This document shows positions 2,435 to 59,262 of a DNA stretch of 64,000 nucleotides, piece by piece. Below the pieces are notes generated by a model. It made no database searches, had not been told where the DNA came from, and saw nothing but the letters and a program-made list of their open reading frames with translations. A program made the translations under genes and the position numbers. How positions within the stretch are numbered: position 1 is the first letter of the stretch; every line of letters begins with the position of its first letter. The stretch comes from Escherichia phage vB_EcoM_KAW1E185: the sequence record NC_054922.1. One strand, 5' to 3'.

Positions 2435-2611
2435 TTATACTCCGGATAGTTTGTAAACTATTTCAACATCGCCTTTTGCTGCTTTATAACCTTCAGCCCA
2501 AGATATAACCGAGTTTTTATCTGAAGATTCAAATTCTGGCATTGGGCTTTCGCCAATGTTCACACAATATGTTTCTTCATTTTCGTCAAACCAAATAATT
2601 AAAGTAGTCAT
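2435..2611 (-). CDS. hypothetical small protein, 58 aa
   Basis: Hand translation (MTTLIIWFDENEET...); below the ORF-track length cut-off; fills the gap between flanking minus-strand genes. Confidence 0.3.
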   Translation of the reverse strand: MTTLIIWFDENEETYCVNIGESPMPEFESSDKNSVISWAEGYKAAKGDVEIVYKLSGV

Positions 2612-2679: not shown

Positions 2680-2955
2680 TTATTTCATATTATTGAAATA
2701 TTCTTCTGCGATTTCATCGTTATCATGGTAAACTTTAGAAGACAGTTTAACATAACCTTCTGCCGTGAACATATTAATCACAACCTTTACAGTATACCAC
2801 TGACCATCTTCATTACCCATTACTGCGTAAGTTTCAAACATCGGATGATCAGGACCGATAACTTTAATATCATTCACTGTACGACCAAAATCTTCTGAAA
2901 CACATTTCATAAAGAAGTTGAACAGTTCGCCGTAATTATCCATTTCATTCTCCAA
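2680..2955 (-). CDS. hypothetical protein, 91 aa
   Basis: ORF track; early-type promoter GTTTACA-N17-TACTAT lies upstream on the minus strand. Confidence 0.5.
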   Translation of the reverse strand: MENEMDNYGELFNFFMKCVSEDFGRTVNDIKVIGPDHPMFETYAVMGNEDGQWYTVKVVINMFTAEGYVKLSSKVYHDNDEIAEEYFNNMK

Positions 2956-2986: not shown

Positions 2987-3016
2987 ATAGTACCATGGAA
3001 GAACGGGGATGTAAAC
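2987..3016 (-). promoter_or_regulatory. early-type promoter (-35 GTTTACA, 17-nt spacer, -10 TACTAT) for 2680..2955
   Basis: Read directly on the minus strand; same architecture as the other early promoters in the window. Confidence 0.5.
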
Positions 3017-3147
3017 CGTTTTGTGAAAAAAATTTTAAAAATTTTTAGGGAATTCTAGGGCGGGGATGGAAAATTAAAAGATAGGATAATATATTATAAA
3101 GGGTAGAAACTAAATGATGCCTAGAGAGGCCCAGAAAGGCCTAGATA

Positions 3148-3178
3148 CCAAAAAGCCCCAACCGAAAGGTTGGGGCTA
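3148..3178 (-). terminator. intrinsic terminator (10-bp GC stem, GAAA loop, U-tract); copy 1 of a duplicated 36-bp element
   Basis: Plus strand reads ataccaaaaagccccaaccgaaaggttggggctaag at 3145..3180; sits just downstream of the stop of the 3185..3658 gene. Confidence 0.6.
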
Positions 3179-3184
3179 AGAATG

Positions 3185-3658
3185 TTATTTGATTTGTTTA
3201 GCAGACCAAATGCGGTCTTTGATAATTTTTTGGATGTCTTCAACATATTCAAGAGAGTGAACATGTGGGTTATCTTTGAAACTATAAGCACGAGCTAGCT
3301 TTTGGCCTTCAGTTTTGATTACTAAAAGCTCTTTAAGGATAGCTTCATATTTGGAGATAATTCCTTTAACGATATTTTTCTCTTGTGTGACTTTAGGATC
3401 TGCTTTAGGAGCAGGTTTACCCGAAGCCTTTGCAAAAGCAGCGCCAGTAGCAACTAAACTTTTCCAGGCCATACTAACTGCATTCCCTGTAAATCCTTCG
3501 GCTTTCATATCACGAGCAAATTGGAATCGTGATTCATCGGAAGCATCTTTATAGGAATATTTACCCGCGGCAATGGCTGCTTTTGCGACAGCTTGAATTT
3601 CGGTGCTAGATGCTTCATTTAACACCGCTTCATTTAAAAATTGAGCATATGATTTCAT
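3185..3658 (-). CDS. internal-protein-like protein with N-terminal capsid-targeting leader (MKSYAQFLNE), 157 aa
   Basis: ORF-track ORF trimmed to the ATG at 3658 (AGGAAA Shine-Dalgarno upstream); leader resembles T4 internal-protein leaders ending in a gp21 L/I-x-E cleavage site; late promoter upstream. Confidence 0.6.
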   Translation of the reverse strand: MKSYAQFLNEAVLNEASSTEIQAVAKAAIAAGKYSYKDASDESRFQFARDMKAEGFTGNAVSMAWKSLVATGAAFAKASGKPAPKADPKVTQEKNIVKGIISKYEAILKELLVIKTEGQKLARAYSFKDNPHVHSLEYVEDIQKIIKDRIWSAKQIK

Positions 3659-3696
3659 CTTATTTCCTGTTTTAATTTGTAGATTTAATATACTAA

Positions 3697-3704
3697 TATT
3701 TATA
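3697..3704 (-). promoter_or_regulatory. late promoter TATAAATA upstream of the 3185..3658 gene
   Basis: Plus strand reads tatttata, i.e. TATAAATA on the minus strand, about 39 nt upstream of the ATG. Confidence 0.5.
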
Positions 3705-3732
3705 CCAAAAAGCCCCAACCTTTCGGTCGGGG
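3705..3732 (-). terminator. intrinsic terminator; copy 2 of the duplicated 36-bp element (loop inverted to TTTC)
   Basis: Plus strand reads ataccaaaaagccccaacctttcggtcggggctaag at 3702..3737; ends the tRNA/stable-RNA transcription unit. Confidence 0.6.
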
Positions 3733-3740
3733 CTAAGCCT

Positions 3741-4043
3741 TGCGGCAACCTTGTCGGGGTTCCACCTGCTAAGGCAAGTGTTTGTACGAAACGCCGGGAT
3801 TCGAACCCGGTTATTAAGTAGTTGACGCTACTCAATATTTTTAAAAGGCCATATCTCGACCATATCCGAACGTTCCGTCAAAAACGCTACTCGGCTTACG
3901 GCAAAGATATTTCCTCGAATCGATAATTCGGTGCGCCGTTTCTGCTGTGATGTAAGAGGGCATCAATAAACGCAAAGATTATTAACGCAATTCCTTACTC
4001 AGGGAACATCAGTCCGACGACTTACCGGTAGCGACCCGGTTTC
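3741..4043 (-). ncRNA. putative stable small RNA(s), comparable to T4 species 1/2 RNAs downstream of tRNA-Arg
   Basis: No ORF; T-arm-like CCGGGTTCGAATCCCGG; an 8-bp long-range pairing (ACGGAACG with CGTTTCGT) could form an acceptor-like stem; boundaries approximate. Confidence 0.35.
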
Positions 4044-4394
4044 TTAATATTCTTTTAAAGCATCAATCTGTTTACGGCGTTCACGCCATAAATCAATTGC
4101 TTCATACGCGGATTCAGCATTTCGAATTAGCCGGCATTTATGTAAAGACTTATGATTTTGATATTGTGTAGATAACGGAATTTTATCTAAAAGGTCTTTA
4201 CGTTCAAAGTATTCGTAACCATCTAAGCCAAATGAACGATTTTTGAGAAATTGCCAATGACCAAATTCGTTTTGAATATAAATATAATCCGCATGTTGAT
4301 AAAGTAAATTAATTTCACGAAATGAGATATGTTTTTCATATTCATTGAAGTAAAATGTTAAATCATGAACTACTAAATAAACATTACCTTTCAT
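4044..4394 (-). CDS. hypothetical protein, 116 aa, between tRNA-Arg and the stable-RNA region
   Basis: ORF track; no motif recognised. Confidence 0.45.
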   Translation of the reverse strand: MKGNVYLVVHDLTFYFNEYEKHISFREINLLYQHADYIYIQNEFGHWQFLKNRSFGLDGYEYFERKDLLDKIPLSTQYQNHKSLHKCRLIRNAESAYEAIDLWRERRKQIDALKEY

Positions 4395-4412: not shown

Positions 4413-4488
4413 TGGTCGAGGCAGTAGGGATCGAACCTACGACCTAGGACTTAGAAGGTCCTTGCTCTTCCTTCTGAGCTATGCCCCG
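4413..4488 (-). tRNA. tRNA-Arg (anticodon UCU)
   Basis: Hand-folded cloverleaf: anticodon arm AGGAC-CTTCTAA-GTCCT, T-loop GGTTCGATCC, encoded CCA. Confidence 0.85.
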
Positions 4489-4492
4489 TAAT

Positions 4493-4568
4493 TGGGGTGA
4501 CCGATGGGAGTCGAACCCATGACTACGAGAATCACAATCTCGAGTTCTACCAACTGAACTACGGCCAC
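4493..4568 (-). tRNA. tRNA-His (anticodon GUG)
   Basis: Anticodon arm CGAGA-TTGTGAT-TCTCG, T-arm ATGGG-TTCGACT-CCCAT, discriminator C, encoded CCA. Confidence 0.8.
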
Positions 4569-4682
4569 ATTAATACCTACTCCAACAATCAAGATGTCTT
4601 CACACGAAATTAAGAGAAGAGTGATCAGTTCAACCCCTATAATCGCGTCAAGTAGATATTAATGTGACAGTTGTCACAAATT

Positions 4683-4757
4683 TGGCGGACGTGATAGGAT
4701 TCGAACCTATAACCAATCGCTTAACAGGCGATCGCTCTGCCATTGAGCTACACATCC
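4683..4757 (-). tRNA. tRNA-Asn (anticodon GUU)
   Basis: Anticodon arm ATCGC-CTGTTAA-GCGAT, T-loop GGTTCGAATCC, encoded CCA. Confidence 0.8.
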
Positions 4758-4761
4758 AAAT

Positions 4762-4848
4762 TGGTGGGGAGTGGTGGAGTCGAACCACCCGAGTCGCAAT
4801 GACAATGAATTTACAGTCCACACCGCTACCTCTACGGGATAACTCCCC
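4762..4848 (-). tRNA. type II tRNA, probably tRNA-Tyr (anticodon GUA); D-arm non-canonical
   Basis: 87 nt; acceptor GGGGAGT/ACTCCCC, loop CTGTAAA, long variable arm, T-arm GGTGG-TTCGACT-CCACC, encoded CCA; anticodon stem has two G-U pairs. Confidence 0.6.
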
Positions 4849-4857
4849 AAATTAATT

Positions 4858-4932
4858 TGGTGGCCCTGGGTGGAATTGAACCACCATCTGGCGATTATGA
4901 GTCGCTTGCTTGAACCTTCCAGCTACAGGGCC
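4858..4932 (-). tRNA. tRNA with anticodon CAU (Ile2 or Met), in the position of T4 tRNA-Ile
   Basis: Acceptor GGCCCTG/CAGGGCC, anticodon loop CTCATAA, T-loop GGTTCAATTCC, encoded CCA. Confidence 0.75.
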
Positions 4933-4933
4933 T

Positions 4934-5009
4934 TGGTGCTGATTGACGGAATCGAACCGCCGACCTTCTCATTACAAGTGAGTTGCTCTACCTACTAAGC
5001 TAAATCAGC
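4934..5009 (-). tRNA. tRNA-Thr (anticodon UGU)
   Basis: Acceptor GCTGATT/AATCAGC, anticodon loop CTTGTAA, T-loop GGTTCGATTCC, encoded CCA. Confidence 0.85.
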
Positions 5010-5014
5010 AAAAC

Positions 5015-5104
5015 TGGCGGAGGCGATAGGATTTGAACCTATGAGTCGCCGGAGCGACTGCCGGTTTTCAAGACCGGTGCATTAAACCACTCTGCCACGC
5101 CTCC
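5015..5104 (-). tRNA. tRNA-Ser (anticodon UGA), type II
   Basis: 90 nt; anticodon arm CCGGT-CTTGAAA-ACCGG, long variable arm, T-loop GGTTCAAATCC, encoded CCA. Confidence 0.85.
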
Positions 5105-5110
5105 AAATAT

Positions 5111-5761
5111 TTATATATTGTTAATTTGATTTAGAATTCTTTTTGCTTGAGTATGACTTACGCCAATATGCTTAGCATATTTAGACAATTCGCCACGTTT
5201 AGAAAAATCATATAATTTAGAAATTTCTATTCTTCTTTTTCTTTCATCCGCAGAAACTTTTGCTTCGTTTGCTTTTGCTATTTTACGTTTAGCTTCTTGA
5301 GAATGAGTTTTACCAGCAAAGCCATTCTTCATTAATCCATTTGAAGACCATCCTTTTAATTTTCCGTTAGAATGTGCCTTTTTAACACCCAATGAAATTA
5401 ATTCGCGTTGCTGATCTGTCATAGGATAATTATTTATATGGTCCCATCCACCTTCACCTCCAAGTTTTAAATTATACACATCTGGTCTATTTAAAAACTC
5501 TTCTGTGACAATATTTTTCTCGGCTTCAAGCATAGATTCTTTATCGTCAAAATACTCTAATATTTCTTTAGAAAAATTTTCTATACCATATTTATCTTGG
5601 GCTCTTTTTAATAATTTACCAGAACCCATATATCCATCATCTAAATTTTCGGTAGAATGCACACCAATATAAATTTTATTATTAATTTTATTTGTTATTT
5701 TATAAAGATAAAAATGCATATCAGTCCCTAATAAAGAACTGAGCGTCTCACGACGAGTCAT
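5111..5761 (-). mobile_element. segB: GIY-YIG homing endonuclease (SegB-like) wedged between tRNA-Gly and tRNA-Ser
   Basis: N-terminal GIY-YIG module YLYKITNKINNKIYIGVHS plus basic C-terminal region; lies inside the tRNA array as T4 segB does; true start may be the internal Met at 5719. Confidence 0.8.
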
Positions 5762-5765
5762 AAAT

Positions 5766-5839
<74 letters not shown>

Positions 5840-5844
5840 AAATT

Positions 5845-5931
5845 TGGTGCGAGAAGTGGGACTCGAACCCACAAGGAAATCATTCCGCAGCATTTTAAGT
5901 GCTGTGCCTTTACCAATTTGACCATTCTCGC
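5845..5931 (-). tRNA. tRNA-Leu (anticodon UAA), type II
   Basis: 87 nt; acceptor GCGAGAA/TTCTCGC, anticodon arm CAGCA-CTTAAAA-TGCTG, T-loop GGGTTCGAGTCCC, encoded CCA. Confidence 0.85.
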
Positions 5932-5932
5932 G

Positions 5933-6005
5933 CTGGGAATAAAGGACTCGAACCTTTGCATCTAGCAGTCAAAGTGCTATGCCTTACCAACTTGGCTAAT
6001 TCCCA
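5933..6005 (-). tRNA. tRNA-Gln (anticodon UUG), no encoded CCA, abuts tRNA-Leu
   Basis: Acceptor TGGGAAT/ATTCCCA, anticodon arm TAGCA-CTTTGAC-TGCTA, T-loop AGGTTCGAGTCCT; only 1 nt separates it from tRNA-Leu. Confidence 0.8.
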
Positions 6006-7524: not shown

Positions 7525-7555
7525 ATAGTATCACTACCCTATCTAAAAGTAAACT
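7525..7555 (-). promoter_or_regulatory. early-type promoter with -10 TACTAT set inside a perfect 10-bp inverted repeat (agatagggta / taccctatct)
   Basis: Minus strand reads GTTTACT-N17-TACTAT; inverted-repeat arms at 7515..7524 and 7535..7544. Confidence 0.5.
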
Positions 7556-7788
7556 TATTTTTTACGAAAAATTGATTTATATTTATCAGCCCATTTCTCG
7601 ATGACTTTTTCTGGTCCATAGATAACAAAATAATCACCAAACTCTTCACCACCGAGTTGACCGAAATTATCTAATGCATCACGAAGAACTCCATGAGGCA
7701 TTTCGCCCATTTTATCTTTCTTACCAATGTAAATAAACTCAACTTTTACATCAGCAGCTTCAGCAATAAATTCTTGATACGTTTTCAT
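7555..7788 (-). CDS. small internal-protein-like protein with capsid-targeting leader MKTYQEFIAE, 77 aa
   Basis: ORF-track ORF trimmed to ATG 7788 (GGAGA Shine-Dalgarno); leader is the canonical T-even internal-protein leader ending in the gp21 cleavage motif I-A-E. Confidence 0.55.
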   Translation of the reverse strand: MKTYQEFIAEAADVKVEFIYIGKKDKMGEMPHGVLRDALDNFGQLGGEEFGDYFVIYGPEKVIEKWADKYKSIFRKK

Positions 7789-7873: not shown

Positions 7874-8161
7874 TTACAAAAGATTTTTAGCAATAATCTT
7901 GAGATGTGCTGCAGAAATGTGTTTAGCTTTAAACAACGCAGTTTCTTCGGCAGGAGAGATAACGATTGTAGCACCATCCTTTTTAGCAGACCACCCATCA
8001 CCTAGGTAAACAGTACCTTTGATTTCTTCGCCATCAACCAGACTAATCATTGGTTTACCTTCTCGTCCTTTATTTGCTTTAATAACTTCAGAAGTAAGAG
8101 TAGCTTCGGTAATGGTAGAAACCGGGGTAGTTGTAGAAGTAAATTCTTTAAATGTTTTCAT
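7874..8161 (-). CDS. ipI: internal protein I (IPI), injected inhibitor of GmrS/GmrD-type restriction
   Basis: 95 aa; leader MKTFKEFTSTTTPVSTITE followed by ATLTSEVIKANKGREG..., recognised as T4 IPI. Confidence 0.9.
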   Translation of the reverse strand: MKTFKEFTSTTTPVSTITEATLTSEVIKANKGREGKPMISLVDGEEIKGTVYLGDGWSAKKDGATIVISPAEETALFKAKHISAAHLKIIAKNLL

Positions 8162-36748: not shown

Positions 36749-37173
36749 TGCTTCTGATCCCTGAAACTCATGAATTAGTTCTCGAGAATGTCGAAGCACT
36801 TATTCCTGAAGCACAGGGTCGCTTTGACGAATTGTCTTCTGCTTTAAATAAAGACGATATAAATACAATTATCGAGAATATGCTTGATGATGAAACTGAT
36901 TTAGCAATTGCATTAGCTTCTATTAATGAAGATATGCCGCTAAATGAATTCATCGTTAAACATGTTTCTGCTCGTGGTGAAATTACACGTACTAAAGACC
37001 GCAAGACGCGTGAACGTAATGCATTTCAAACCACCGGGCTGTCTAAAGCAAAACGTAGACAAATTGCTCGCAAAGCTACCAAAACGAAGATTGCCAATCC
37101 AGCAGGTCAATCTCGTGCTCAGCGTAAGCGTAAAAAAGCTCTTAAACGCCGTAAAGCATTAGGATTAAGCTAA
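36748..37173 (+). CDS. 68: gp68 prohead core protein
   Basis: 141 aa; T4 gp68 length and order. Confidence 0.9.
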
Positions 37174-37811
37174 TGAATGAACCCCAATTACTAATTGAAA
37201 CTTGGGGTCAACCTGGCGAAATTATTGATGGTGTGCCAATGCTTGAATCCCACGATGGAAAAGACTTAGGTTTAAAACCTGGTTTATACATCGAAGGAAT
37301 ATTCATGCAAGCGGAAGTCGTCAATAGAAATAAACGTCTTTATCCAAAACGCATATTAGAAAAAGCGGTAAAAGACTATATCAATGAGCAAGTTTTAACT
37401 AAACAAGCTCTCGGAGAATTAAATCATCCTCCACGCGCTAATGTTGACCCGATGCAAGCCGCTATCATTATAGAAGATATGTGGTGGAAAGGAAATGACG
37501 TATACGGACGAGCTCGTGTTATTGAAGGTGACCATGGTCCTGGAGATAAATTAGCAGCTAATATTCGTGCCGGATGGATTCCAGGAGTTTCTTCTCGTGG
37601 ATTAGGTTCATTGACTGACACAAATAAAGGTTATCGTATCGTAAACGAAGGATTCAAATTAACTGTAGGTGTTGATGCAGTATGGGGTCCAAGTGCTCCA
37701 GATGCATGGGTAACTCCTAAGGAAATTACCGAATCACAGACGGCGGAAGCCGATACAAGTGCCGATGACGCCTATATGGCTCTCGCAGAGGCCATGAAAA
37801 AAGCGTTATAA
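37173..37811 (+). CDS. 21: gp21 prohead core scaffold protease
   Basis: 212 aa; T4 gp21 length and order. Confidence 0.95.
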   Translation: MNEPQLLIETWGQPGEIIDGVPMLESHDGKDLGLKPGLYIEGIFMQAEVVNRNKRLYPKRILEKAVKDYINEQVLTKQALGELNHPPRANVDPMQAAIIIEDMWWKGNDVYGRARVIEGDHGPGDKLAANIRAGWIPGVSSRGLGSLTDTNKGYRIVNEGFKLTVGVDAVWGPSAPDAWVTPKEITESQTAEADTSADDAYMALAEAMKKAL

Positions 37812-37841: not shown

Positions 37842-38651
37842 ATGCTTAAAGAACAACTGATTGCTGAAGCGCAAAAAATTGATGCTTCCGTTGCTCTTGA
37901 TAGTATTTTCGAATCAGTTAATATTTCTCCGGAAGCAAAAGAAACTTTCGGCACTGTATTCGAAGCTACCGTCAAGCAGCACGCCGTTAAATTAGCTGAA
38001 TCTCATATCGCTAAAATTGCTGAAAAAGCAGAAGAAGAAGTAGAAAAAAATAAAGAAGAAGCCGAAGAAAAAGCTGAGAAGAAAATCGCTGAGCAAGCTT
38101 CTAAATTCATCGACCATCTTGCGAAAGAATGGCTCGCTGAAAATAAATTAGCAGTTGATAAAGGCATCAAAGCCGAACTGTTTGAATCCATGCTTGGTGG
38201 ATTAAAAGAGCTCTTTGTTGAACACAACGTTGTTGTTCCAGAAGAATCAGTTGATGTTGTAGCTGAAATGGAAGAAGAGCTGCAAGAACATAAAGAAGAA
38301 TCAGCTCGTCTGTTCGAAGAACTCAATAAGCGTGACGCATATATCAATTATGTGCAGCGTGAAGTGGCATTGAGCGAAAGTACTAAAGATCTGACTGAGT
38401 CTCAAAAAGAAAAAGTCTCTGCTCTGGTCGAAGGTATGGATTATTCAGATGAATTCTCAAGTAAATTGAGTGCCATCGTAGAAATGGTGAAGAAGTCTAA
38501 TAAAGATGAAAGCACTATTACTGAGGGTATAAATACTCCTGATACTGAAGCAGCCGGACTGAATTTCGTCACTGAAGCTGTAGAAGATAAAGCTGCACCT
38601 GGTGCAGAAGATATTGTAAGTGTATATGCGAAAGTCGCATCTCGTTTCTAA
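37842..38651 (+). CDS. 22: gp22 prohead scaffold protein
   Basis: 269 aa; E/K-rich coiled coil; T4 gp22 length. Confidence 0.95.
   Translation: MLKEQLIAEAQKIDASVALDSIFESVNISPEAKETFGTVFEATVKQHAVKLAESHIAKIAEKAEEEVEKNKEEAEEKAEKKIAEQASKFIDHLAKEWLAENKLAVDKGIKAELFESMLGGLKELFVEHNVVVPEESVDVVAEMEEELQEHKEESARLFEELNKRDAYINYVQREVALSESTKDLTESQKEKVSALVEGMDYSDEFSSKLSAIVEMVKKSNKDESTITEGINTPDTEAAGLNFVTEAVEDKAAPGAEDIVSVYAKVASRF
38528..38535 (+). promoter_or_regulatory. late promoter TATAAATA for gene 23, inside the 3' end of gene 22
   Basis: Exact TATAAATA about 135 nt upstream of the gene 23 ATG. Confidence 0.65.
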
Positions 38652-57613: not shown

Positions 57614-57802
57614 TTAATAATCTATTGGTAAGAGAGTACGATATATTTCAAACTTTGGACCTTTTTCATAGGCATCAAATGTTTCTGTGAATTTATTATA
57701 AGCATATGCATCTATAAATTCAATCATAATTTGTGATACAGAAGTAGAAACATCTCCACCTTCTTTTTGAGCAACGACAATTGTTTCTAAGTAAGCTTTC
57801 AT
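57614..57802 (-). CDS. hypothetical small protein, 62 aa
   Basis: ORF track; start overlaps the ligase stop. Confidence 0.55.
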   Translation of the reverse strand: MKAYLETIVVAQKEGGDVSTSVSQIMIEFIDAYAYNKFTETFDAYEKGPKFEIYRTLLPIDY

Positions 57803-59262
57803 AGACCAGTTACCTCATGAAAATCACCAAATACATCCTCGAATGTATTAGCTTTAGTTTTATCTTCACGTAAACGAATCGCAATCGGAAGAAATAATTT
57901 AACGTAATCAGTGCGGCCATCAGATTTTAGCCAACCGTTGCATTCGCACTCTAGAATTTTTCCAATATAATAATTTTGGTTTTCCATAATGCGAGTACGG
58001 TCAAGTTCATGTGATTTTACACCGGCTTTATCTTTTAAGCCTGAACCAGCATTTACTTTAATTTTTCCACACTCTGATTCAAGAATAAATCCACCTGCTT
58101 TAGTAGGGTCTTTACGGTGAGGATAAATTCCTACAATTTTTAAATCAACATCAATTACTTCTTTAAATTTATAGAGATTTTTTGAACGAGCATTTTCCCA
58201 CAATCCATCGGTATTTTTGAGAATAATACCTTCAAGACCTTGGTCAATATACTTTTTATAAATTACCTTAGCTTCATCTAGGTTATTTACTACCTGGTTT
58301 TCAATTAAAATTACTTTATCATATCCTGATGTCATTTGTTCTAGTTTAGAAAAACGTACATCATATTTTAAACGAAACGCCGGAAGACCGTATATTTCTA
58401 CCAACGGAACATAATCCCAGACCTGAAACTTCATGCATTGAGCTTCTTTTTCTGAAATAGTTCCCTTTAAAGATTTATTAGCGATTCCATTAGAAGCAGT
58501 ACGAGATTCCGCTACTTCGGCGAATTCTTTAGCTTTACTAATTTCAGGATAATCATCAAAAAGAAAATCTAGGCCTTCTGGTTCCTTTTTAACTTGCTCA
58601 TGGTATACCAATTCGCCATCAATTAACACACCTTCTGGATGAATCTGGCGGGCTTCAGCAGTCATTTTGATTAATTCTTCCTTAAGAAGATCTAATCCTA
58701 GATATTCATTACCAGCTCGTGATAAAAGACGAACATCATCTAATTCATCGCCTCGGACTTCAGCAAAACACCTGGCTCCATCTGCTTTTAACTGTGCAAA
58801 GGCTGGAAATTTGATATTCTTACTAATGCCCTTTTCATCATAAGAACTTGCCAGCATTTGAGGTTGTTCAGGAATTAAACCTGGCCAAACTTTGTTTGCA
58901 ATAGATACTGAAGCACCGCATTCAAGGTCTCGCATCATCACTCGACGCAAAACTTCAACATCATCCTTTTTACCATCGGTGATATATCCAGTCAATTCCT
59001 CAATTGCAGCATTTCCGGTCAATTTCCGAGTAGCTAACGTGAATTCAATGAAGTCAAGCATATCGGTAATGGTCAGCATTCCAAAACTCTGGGTAGCAAT
59101 ACCAGGTTTAGGCCATTTCTTGATATAATACTGTAACCCACGAGAATAAGTTAGACGATATACTCGTTTAAGCAATTCATTATCTTTATTCTTTTCAAGA
59201 ATTGCTTGCTTCTGCTTAGTTGATCCAATAGATGCTATTTCATTCAGAATTTTAAGAATCAT
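57799..59262 (-). CDS. 30: gp30 ATP-dependent DNA ligase
   Basis: 487 aa; adenylylation motif KADGAR; N-terminus recognised as T4 DNA ligase. Confidence 0.97.
   Translation of the reverse strand: MILKILNEIASIGSTKQKQAILEKNKDNELLKRVYRLTYSRGLQYYIKKWPKPGIATQSFGMLTITDMLDFIEFTLATRKLTGNAAIEELTGYITDGKKDDVEVLRRVMMRDLECGASVSIANKVWPGLIPEQPQMLASSYDEKGISKNIKFPAFAQLKADGARCFAEVRGDELDDVRLLSRAGNEYLGLDLLKEELIKMTAEARQIHPEGVLIDGELVYHEQVKKEPEGLDFLFDDYPEISKAKEFAEVAESRTASNGIANKSLKGTISEKEAQCMKFQVWDYVPLVEIYGLPAFRLKYDVRFSKLEQMTSGYDKVILIENQVVNNLDEAKVIYKKYIDQGLEGIILKNTDGLWENARSKNLYKFKEVIDVDLKIVGIYPHRKDPTKAGGFILESECGKIKVNAGSGLKDKAGVKSHELDRTRIMENQNYYIGKILECECNGWLKSDGRTDYVKLFLPIAIRLREDKTKANTFEDVFGDFHEVTGL

Follow-up and report, generated by a model that had tools for sequence, protein, structure and literature searches.

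A minus-strand gene lying between rnaC and e.8 in Escherichia phage vB_EcoM_KAW1E185, here called gene A, is best read from its sequence as an accessory gene for an internal (head-packaged) protein, occupying a third polymorphic locus of the internal protein (IP) type. The analysis covered 64,000 nt of the genome (NC_054922.1), hereafter the window, to which coordinates refer; judged by its sequence it is a segment of a Tequatrovirus (T4-like) genome, reaching from e.3 through past the head genes. We consider it probable that the gene A product is packaged and processed via its N-terminal leader and that the locus behaves as a cassette. That the protein is injected to inhibit a host defence is a more tentative proposal, made by analogy with Ip1, Ip2 and Ip3 of T4, each of which inhibits a different GmrSD type IV restriction enzyme according to the account in PMC12373910 (Silas et al. 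2025).

In IPIII of T4 the first 10 residues suffice for packaging (Mullaney and Black, as summarised in PMC9026906). In the same source, targeting depends on residues 4 and 7 and processing on residues 8 and 10, and L/I-x-E is given as the motif after which the prohead protease gp21 cleaves. The gene A product begins MKSYAQFLNE/A, the slash marking the predicted cleavage point, and T4 IPII and IPIII begin MKTYQEFIAE/A. All four critical positions are kept. The aromatic residues of the capsid targeting sequence (CTS) are Y4 and F7, at positions conserved in all full-length relatives, and L8-N9-E10 supplies the gp21 motif, with Ala11 directly behind it. An earlier, sequence-only reading of this DNA had likened the leader to those of T-even head proteins, and the likeness extends to each experimentally critical position. 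The same reading expected the mature protein to start AVLNEASS..., which is possible, but a second L-N-E occupies residues 13-15 and is followed by Ala16. A start at ASSTEIQ... would also fit the cleavage motif, and the mature N terminus could be either. The window encodes gp21, a member of Peptidase_S77, along with the gp22 scaffolding core protein, gp67 and gp68.

Conservation of the leader in otherwise diverged relatives is the strongest argument that it is functional. It is retained in relatives at 25-60% identity (MLKFNEFLAE, MINFSDFLNE, MKSFSSFLNE, MLEYSEFLKE and MKFKEFLAE). A profile search of 1.84 billion proteins returned 13 cluster representatives, and all the full-length ones carry an N-terminal leader, MISFNEFV..LITE among them, with the remainder of the protein diverged to 25-40% identity. 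Because this search gave 13 representatives and a scan of IMG/VR gave 10 loci, the family is taken to be narrow. Within the window, a strict form of the leader pattern, applied to all ATG-started open reading frames (ORFs) of at least 40 aa, is matched by gene A and by an Ip6 homologue beside ipI alone. A loose form additionally matches ipI and one false positive, a 420-aa ORF (57802-59061, minus strand; MLDFIEFTL) that starts at an internal ATG of DNA ligase gp30 (PF01068) and was rejected; the strict form was needed because of this match.

Gene A (ATG at 3658..3656, minus strand) is preceded by a T4-type late promoter box, TATAAATA, that begins directly after the U-run of a terminator on its rnaC side (Table 1). 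The window has 11 minus-strand TATAAATA sites in 64 kb, this one included, so the chance of a box landing in a given 60-nt leader is ~1%. Moreover, the box or a one-mismatch version of it stands at the same position in 16 related loci. A late promoter belonging to gene A had been proposed from the letters alone, and such a box likewise abuts a terminator in loci of four genera. The order terminator-TATAAATA-gene is kept in Tequatrovirus, in Mosigvirus, in Jiaodavirus (with another stem sequence), in Yersinia phage fHe-Yen9-01 and in OQ361773.

The terminator on the rnaC side is one of two copies of a 36-nt direct repeat that flank gene A. The copies are identical at 31 of 36 bases, differing in four loop bases and one stem base, and the window holds exactly two occurrences of the hairpin core (0.00 expected; 100 shuffles). 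By sequence both are canonical intrinsic terminators on the sense (minus) strand, with a 10-bp stem, a 4-nt loop and U5, as the sequence-only reading had supposed. The proximal hairpin, identical to the single copy in T4, folds at -21.5 kcal/mol, and the distal one at -19.7 kcal/mol (z -5.1). With its GAAA loop on the plus strand, the distal hairpin was also considered as a plus-strand or bidirectional terminator; this was ruled out, as the plus strand has no T-run after it. One point of the earlier description needs correcting: the late promoter overlaps the proximal copy, the last three bases of which (TAT) are the first three of the box. At the distal copy TAT continues as TATCTAGG, which is no promoter.

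The differences between the copies had been described as an inverted tetraloop plus one stem base. The positions stand, but the inversion appears to involve the whole hairpin. In nine other loci the loop of the distal copy is GAAA or AAAA, like that of the proximal copy, and the window instead has UUUC and a perfect stem. In phage a48 (locus L019, ~735-760) the same place holds the exact reverse complement of a GAAA-loop variant seen elsewhere. Because of this, the loop and stem-base differences suggest inversion of the entire hairpin in a minor clade comprising the window and a48, with a later base change that restored pairing in the window. Template switching in the quasi-palindrome may have been the source of the inversion.

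Comparison across T4-like genomes, proposed in the sequence-only reading as a check on its cassette idea, reveals four states of the locus: empty, gene A, gene B, and both genes. In T4 a single terminator copy lies between e.8 and rnaC, with the e.8-side flank on one side of it and the rnaC-side flank on the other. Against T4, the window carries a clean block of 557 bp bounded by the repeat. The site in T6 is the same as in T4, with one hairpin and no gene, and gene A is absent also from RB3 and PST. RB14 has only gene B (RB69ORF149c / RB14ncORF136c), gene A being missing exactly between the hairpin copies. In Mosigvirus PhAPEC2, and also in UFV13, ZN18 and some other Tequatroviruses, gene B comes after gene A. 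The rnaC-side flank was found in 588 phage records, gene A in 510 (466 at >=80% coverage, that is, at least this much) and gene B in 165. Of 60 records taken at even spacing from the 588, 9 (~15%) have the uninterrupted T4-type junction. Many coliphage records are 97.6% identical over 701 bases spanning the gene A locus, and the protein of vB_EcoM-UFV13 is 100% identical to the gene A product.

Gene B is equipped with a separate hairpin and with a late box close to consensus, AATAAATA or GATAAATA. BLASTP finds the leader alone in common between the A and B products. However, the B protein falls full length within PHROG 2280, the family of the gene A product, and hhalign matches its C-domain to that of A (80% probability, E 1.4e-5). 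The two are probably old paralogues. More distant loci show further arrangements. KpV477 (Jiaodavirus) has a hairpin of other sequence, then TATAAATA and an A-type gene, and in Yersinia phage fHe-Yen9-01 (locus L014, 2422-3537) a single TATAAATA stands ahead of two leader-bearing genes, the B-type first and the A-type second. In OQ361773.1 (locus L022, 2286-3010), TATAAATA precedes a 72-aa ORF (MKSFTEFLTE) and an A-type gene that overlaps it at ATGA. Judged from these sequences, the terminator-TATAAATA type of locus predates the genus Tequatrovirus.

The hairpins could instead be two ordinary terminators that look alike as efficient terminators tend to, with the gene having been moved by illegitimate events or by exchange of its flanks. 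In mixed infections, recombination within the conserved flanks at rnaC and e.8 would indeed spread alleles too, and the gene B terminator has a different stem, with ~9 nt (GGGCTTTTT) in common with the others. We regard this explanation as improbable. The two copies share 36 nt that include unpaired flanks (ATACCAAAAA... and ...CTAAG) beyond the stem, the empty site of T4 and T6 and the gene A deletion of RB14 end exactly inside the repeat, and short homology suffices for T4 recombination, as stated by Arbiol et al. (PMC2839356).

The gene A product resembles IPII (pI 9.3) and IPIII (pI 9.5) in being a small basic protein and in its composition (25 K+R against 18 D+E, Ala 16%, Lys 13%, no Cys). 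Its family, PHROG 2280, is annotated 'unknown function'. The absence of a recognisable motif, remarked on from the sequence, was confirmed in that Pfam gave only sub-threshold noise, with no match to IPI_T4 (PF11634), and a PDB fold search with the model gave nothing at E below 2. A fold search of BFVD returned members of the same family and one weak match to Serratia phage PS2. In the AlphaFold (AF2) model (pLDDT 76), the leader is disordered (pLDDT 47) ahead of a predicted helical N-domain (residues 18-75, pLDDT 84-92), a Pro/Lys linker (76-87) and a C-domain formed by a helical hairpin (88-155). The N-domain is 60-72% identical across all relatives. The C-domain is 83-94% identical in Tequatrovirus and Mosigvirus and is replaced by an unrelated one in Klebsiella and Yersinia phages.

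Frameshifted gene A alleles were also encountered. The shift lies at a homopolymer at 3375-3379 (a T-run on the plus strand; on the sense strand, the A-run after ...AQEK). These alleles give truncated products of 93-111 aa, were seen in protein clusters P0006, P0008 and P0009 and in the GenBank records fPS-65, PYps55T and 235Ecol030PP, and may be sequencing errors, true slippage or pseudogenes.

Virion proteomics had been suggested as a check on packaging, and a near-identical protein has been detected in a virion preparation. Gp140 of Yersinia phage fD1 is 98% identical to the gene A protein and is listed as PPAP in published virion mass spectrometry, which shows that it is produced and is carried along when particles are purified. 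We searched for a more specific T4-like virion proteome containing gene A and found none.

Several observations weigh against an injected, head-packaged product. The fD1 detection adds little to the case for packaging, because the dataset is unspecific: 113-137 of 277 proteins (41-49%) are called particle-associated, and these include soluble enzymes and other proteins such as dNMP kinase, NudE, DenV and gp57A. The private late promoter is atypical for known IP genes, since T4 ipII and ipIII have no TATAAATA within ~100 nt upstream. Gene A also lies outside the two described IP loci, beside ipI and beside ipII/ipIII, to which IP genes are said in PMC2839356 to be confined, with none elsewhere; such a location is usual for an IP gene, though not strictly defining. 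Within the protein, an L-K-E at residues 108-110 could mean that gp21 would fragment it rather than leave it whole, and the frameshifted alleles recur. Finally, Pfam and PDB searches found no likeness to IPI* or to any solved fold, and for that reason no particular target is supported.

The first of these points bears on whether the protein is packaged at all. It might act late in the cytoplasm, with the leader being an inherited or convergent helix and the mass spectrometry signal contamination, as the many soluble enzymes in the fD1 list would allow. Processing of the leader is, moreover, a prediction. Nevertheless, the four critical positions persist at the extreme N terminus down to ~25% identity, and they recur in two neighbours at the locus that are otherwise unrelated, namely gene B and the 72-aa ORF found in OQ361773.1. 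With typical residue frequencies, we estimate that [YF]4, F7, [LIV]8 and E10 would coincide by chance in ~5e-5 of ORFs. A purely cytoplasmic role is therefore given little credence here.

A packaged protein could also be structural. The gene A product might be a component of the prohead core or a DNA-condensing protein, packaged through its leader like IPIII or gp67/gp68, and either degraded by gp21 at several sites or limited to neutralising the charge of the DNA; it would then have no target among host defences. Such a role would suit a basic, Lys/Ala-rich and all-helical protein with a further gp21 motif at L-K-E, and the N-domain, at its level of identity across genera, is not obviously under an arms race. 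It would sit less well with the dispensability of the gene, which T4, T6, RB3 and PST lack and of which several isolates have frameshifted alleles, or with the swapping of the C-domain between genera. The pattern of presence, absence and mosaicism better suits accessory host-interaction genes, and all three characterised IPs of T4 are specific nuclease inhibitors. We consider a structural role unlikely, though less so than a cytoplasmic one. Given that gene A is modular, occurs patchily and can be dispensed with, anti-defence is the most likely function for the packaged protein that we favour, even if the assignment itself is tentative.

Gene A fits the definition of an IP gene in the sequence features compared, and differs in its locus, private promoter, terminator bounds and two-domain product. 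Like IPII, IPIII and the Ip5/Ip6-type IPs, the product has a 10-residue leader ending in L/I-x-E/A and is small, basic, Ala/Lys-rich and Cys-free. Like ipII and ipIII, the gene is non-essential and polymorphic, and its locus is bounded by repeated regulatory elements. Unlike IPII and IPIII, to which reading of the sequences revealed no similarity past the leader, nor any in fold, it stands at rnaC-e.8 rather than at the ipI or ipII-ipIII loci and has its own late promoter, intrinsic terminator and an exchangeable C-domain; its packaging and processing are predicted. IPI* (PF11634) offers a functional model, as an injected, leader-processed GmrSD inhibitor of T4 that is itself encoded in the window. 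However, IPI* is a 76-aa alpha/beta protein made with a 19-residue propeptide, whereas the A protein is predicted to be all-helical, is twice as large and shows no homology to this characterised inhibitor in Pfam or PDB searches. Gene B is the closest parallel, with the same leader type (MKTYAEFLTE/A), PHROG family, domain plan (N-domain, Pro-Lys linker and helical C-domain) and possession of a late box and terminator, but its similarity to A in BLASTP is limited to the leader and it is absent from the window.

The arrangement is reminiscent of known cassettes. Polymorphic IP genes with leader tags, lying between repeated promoter/stem-loop sequences, were described by Repoila et al. (1994), as cited in PMC12373910 and PMC2839356, and Arbiol, Comeau & Krisch (2010) generalised the idea as PeSL cassettes, in the account given in PMC2839356. 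As in a PeSL cassette, a single accessory ORF lies between direct stem-loop repeats, and relatives without the ORF have one chimeric element at the empty site. The gene A unit is likewise transcriptionally insulated by its predicted signals, and recombination at the repeats would yield a circle on which the expression unit is complete. Unlike in PeSL cassettes, the repeat is a 36-bp G+C-rich intrinsic terminator with a U-run; it holds no early promoter, whether sigma-70-like or of the T4 early type, and the promoter is instead a late (gp55-type) box with three of its bases in the repeat.

The proposed pathway is as follows. The upstream hairpin would terminate transcription of the tRNA/rnaC unit, and the adjoining TATAAATA would start a late monocistronic mRNA that ends at the second hairpin copy. 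The 10-residue leader, through Y4 and F7, would dock the protein on the gp22 scaffolding core of the prohead, and gp21 would cleave after L-N-E, at E10 and possibly also at E15, to leave a basic protein of ~15.5-16 kDa. We infer from its leader that the protein is targeted to the head in this way. The mature protein would then remain in the head with the DNA and enter the cell along with it, where its likeliest job, by analogy with Ip1-3, would be to disable a nuclease of the host or some other early defence. At the level of the DNA, the two hairpin copies would supply the homology for deleting the 557-bp unit or for re-inserting it as a circle, and joining such a circle at the repeats would rebuild an intact hairpin-TATAAATA-gene.

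Table 1. Features of the rnaC-e.8 locus and other relevant genes (positions in the window)
Feature	Position	Strand	Remarks
e.8 homologue	2680..2955	-	downstream edge of the polymorphic locus
early-type promoter match beside e.8	3015..2987	-	sequence match
e.8-proximal (distal) repeat copy	3145..3180	-	candidate gene A terminator; hairpin 3154-3177, perfect 10-bp stem, UUUC loop on the sense RNA, U5
gene A	3185..3658	-	157 aa, 17.3 kDa, pI 9.5; protein start MKSYAQFLNEAVLNEASS (MKSYAQFLNE...)
predicted propeptide (CTS), codons 1-10	3629..3658	-	Y4 and F7, targeting; L8-N9-E10, gp21 site; then Ala11
ribosome-binding site AGGAAA	3663..3668	-	4 nt ahead of the gene A ATG; kept in related loci
T4-type late promoter box TATAAATA	3697..3704	-	38 nt ahead of the gene A ATG
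rnaC-proximal repeat copy	3702..3737	-	candidate terminator of the tRNA/rnaD/rnaC unit; hairpin 3711-3734, GAAA loop, one G-U pair, U5
rnaC (species 1 RNA)	3785..3923	-	~98% identical to T4; upstream context
rnaD	3930-4047	-	coordinates carried over from T4
ten tRNA genes with segB	4413-6005	-	between the trna.x ORFs and rnaD
Ip6 homologue	7555-7788	-	77-aa ORF, start MKTYQEFIAEA, just after ipI
ipI	7874-8161	-	T4 internal protein gene
gp21 prohead protease, Peptidase_S77	37173..37811	+	E 1.5e-111
gp22 scaffold, T4_CASP	37842-38651		E 3.8e-90
gene B (RB69ORF149c / RB14ncORF136c)	relatives, absent from window		187 aa, start MKTYAEFLTE/AAKLPSE

The minus-strand gene order around the locus is ipI, the Ip6 homologue, trna.x ORFs, the tRNAs with segB, rnaD, rnaC, gene A, e.8 and e.6 to e.3. 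The coordinates of rnaC and rnaD were transferred from the T4 annotation by alignment because Rfam has no model for either. In place of T4 e.7 there is an unrelated 58-aa ORF (2435-2611, minus strand) that, going by the annotations of Kha5h and fD1, is RB14ORF134 / RB69ORF145c-like. A 116-aa ORF (MKGNVYLVVHDL...; 4044-4394, minus strand) lies between rnaD and tRNA-Arg, its 3' end running a few bases into the 5' end of rnaD. Its counterpart in PhAPEC2 is annotated as RB69ORF150c-like, and T4 has no such ORF.

The ten tRNA genes of the window are those for Arg, His, Asn, Tyr, Met, Thr, Ser, Gly, Leu and Gln; for comparison, T4 has eight (Arg, Ile, Thr, Ser, Pro, Gly, Leu and Gln). The GIY-YIG endonuclease gene segB (5111-5761) is placed between tRNA-Ser and tRNA-Gly. 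Further along, the Ip6 homologue is identical at 62 of 77 residues to a T6 protein annotated 'Ip6', matches PHROG 8111 ('internal virion protein') and has no counterpart in T4. Both it and ipI are bracketed by early-promoter/stem-loop repeats (tttcacaaagttgtttaca...gtgatactatt), and this stretch constitutes the classical hyperplastic ipI locus. The annotated Ip5 and Ip6 of T6 were considered as possible identities for the gene A product and rejected, as neither is the gene A protein. A full-text search with peptide strings and with the names RB32ORF132c and RB69ORF149c found no mention of it; Repoila 1994 (Ip4-Ip13) and Comeau 2007 lay outside that search.

It has been known since 1994 that leader-tagged IP genes are shuffled between repeated regulatory elements, and the general idea is not new. 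What is new is the candidate itself, a common but unstudied internal protein encoded at an IP-type locus that had not been recognised before. Roughly three quarters of the T4-like coliphages sequenced carry gene A, among them therapy candidates and phages of the BASEL collection. Its sole annotation is 'hypothetical protein', and neither of the model phages T4 and T6 has it. A broader proposal, which we put forward tentatively, is that rnaC-e.8 is a third T-even IP locus, driven by late promoters and housing PHROG 2280 (A, B and their relatives). These would be injected two-domain proteins that inhibit defences beyond those addressed by Ip1-3, with the C-domain setting the target and the terminators acting as recombination joints. 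In that case the locus would have been overlooked because it is empty in T4 and T6.

Beyond Ip1-3, T-even phages have many other leader-tagged proteins. If the gene A protein is injected, gene A would be a candidate determinant of host range on wild strains, IP genes would not be confined to two loci, and plain terminators could act as cassette joints. The leader and late promoter together would also make a natural, compact module for payload delivery by engineered T4 capsids.

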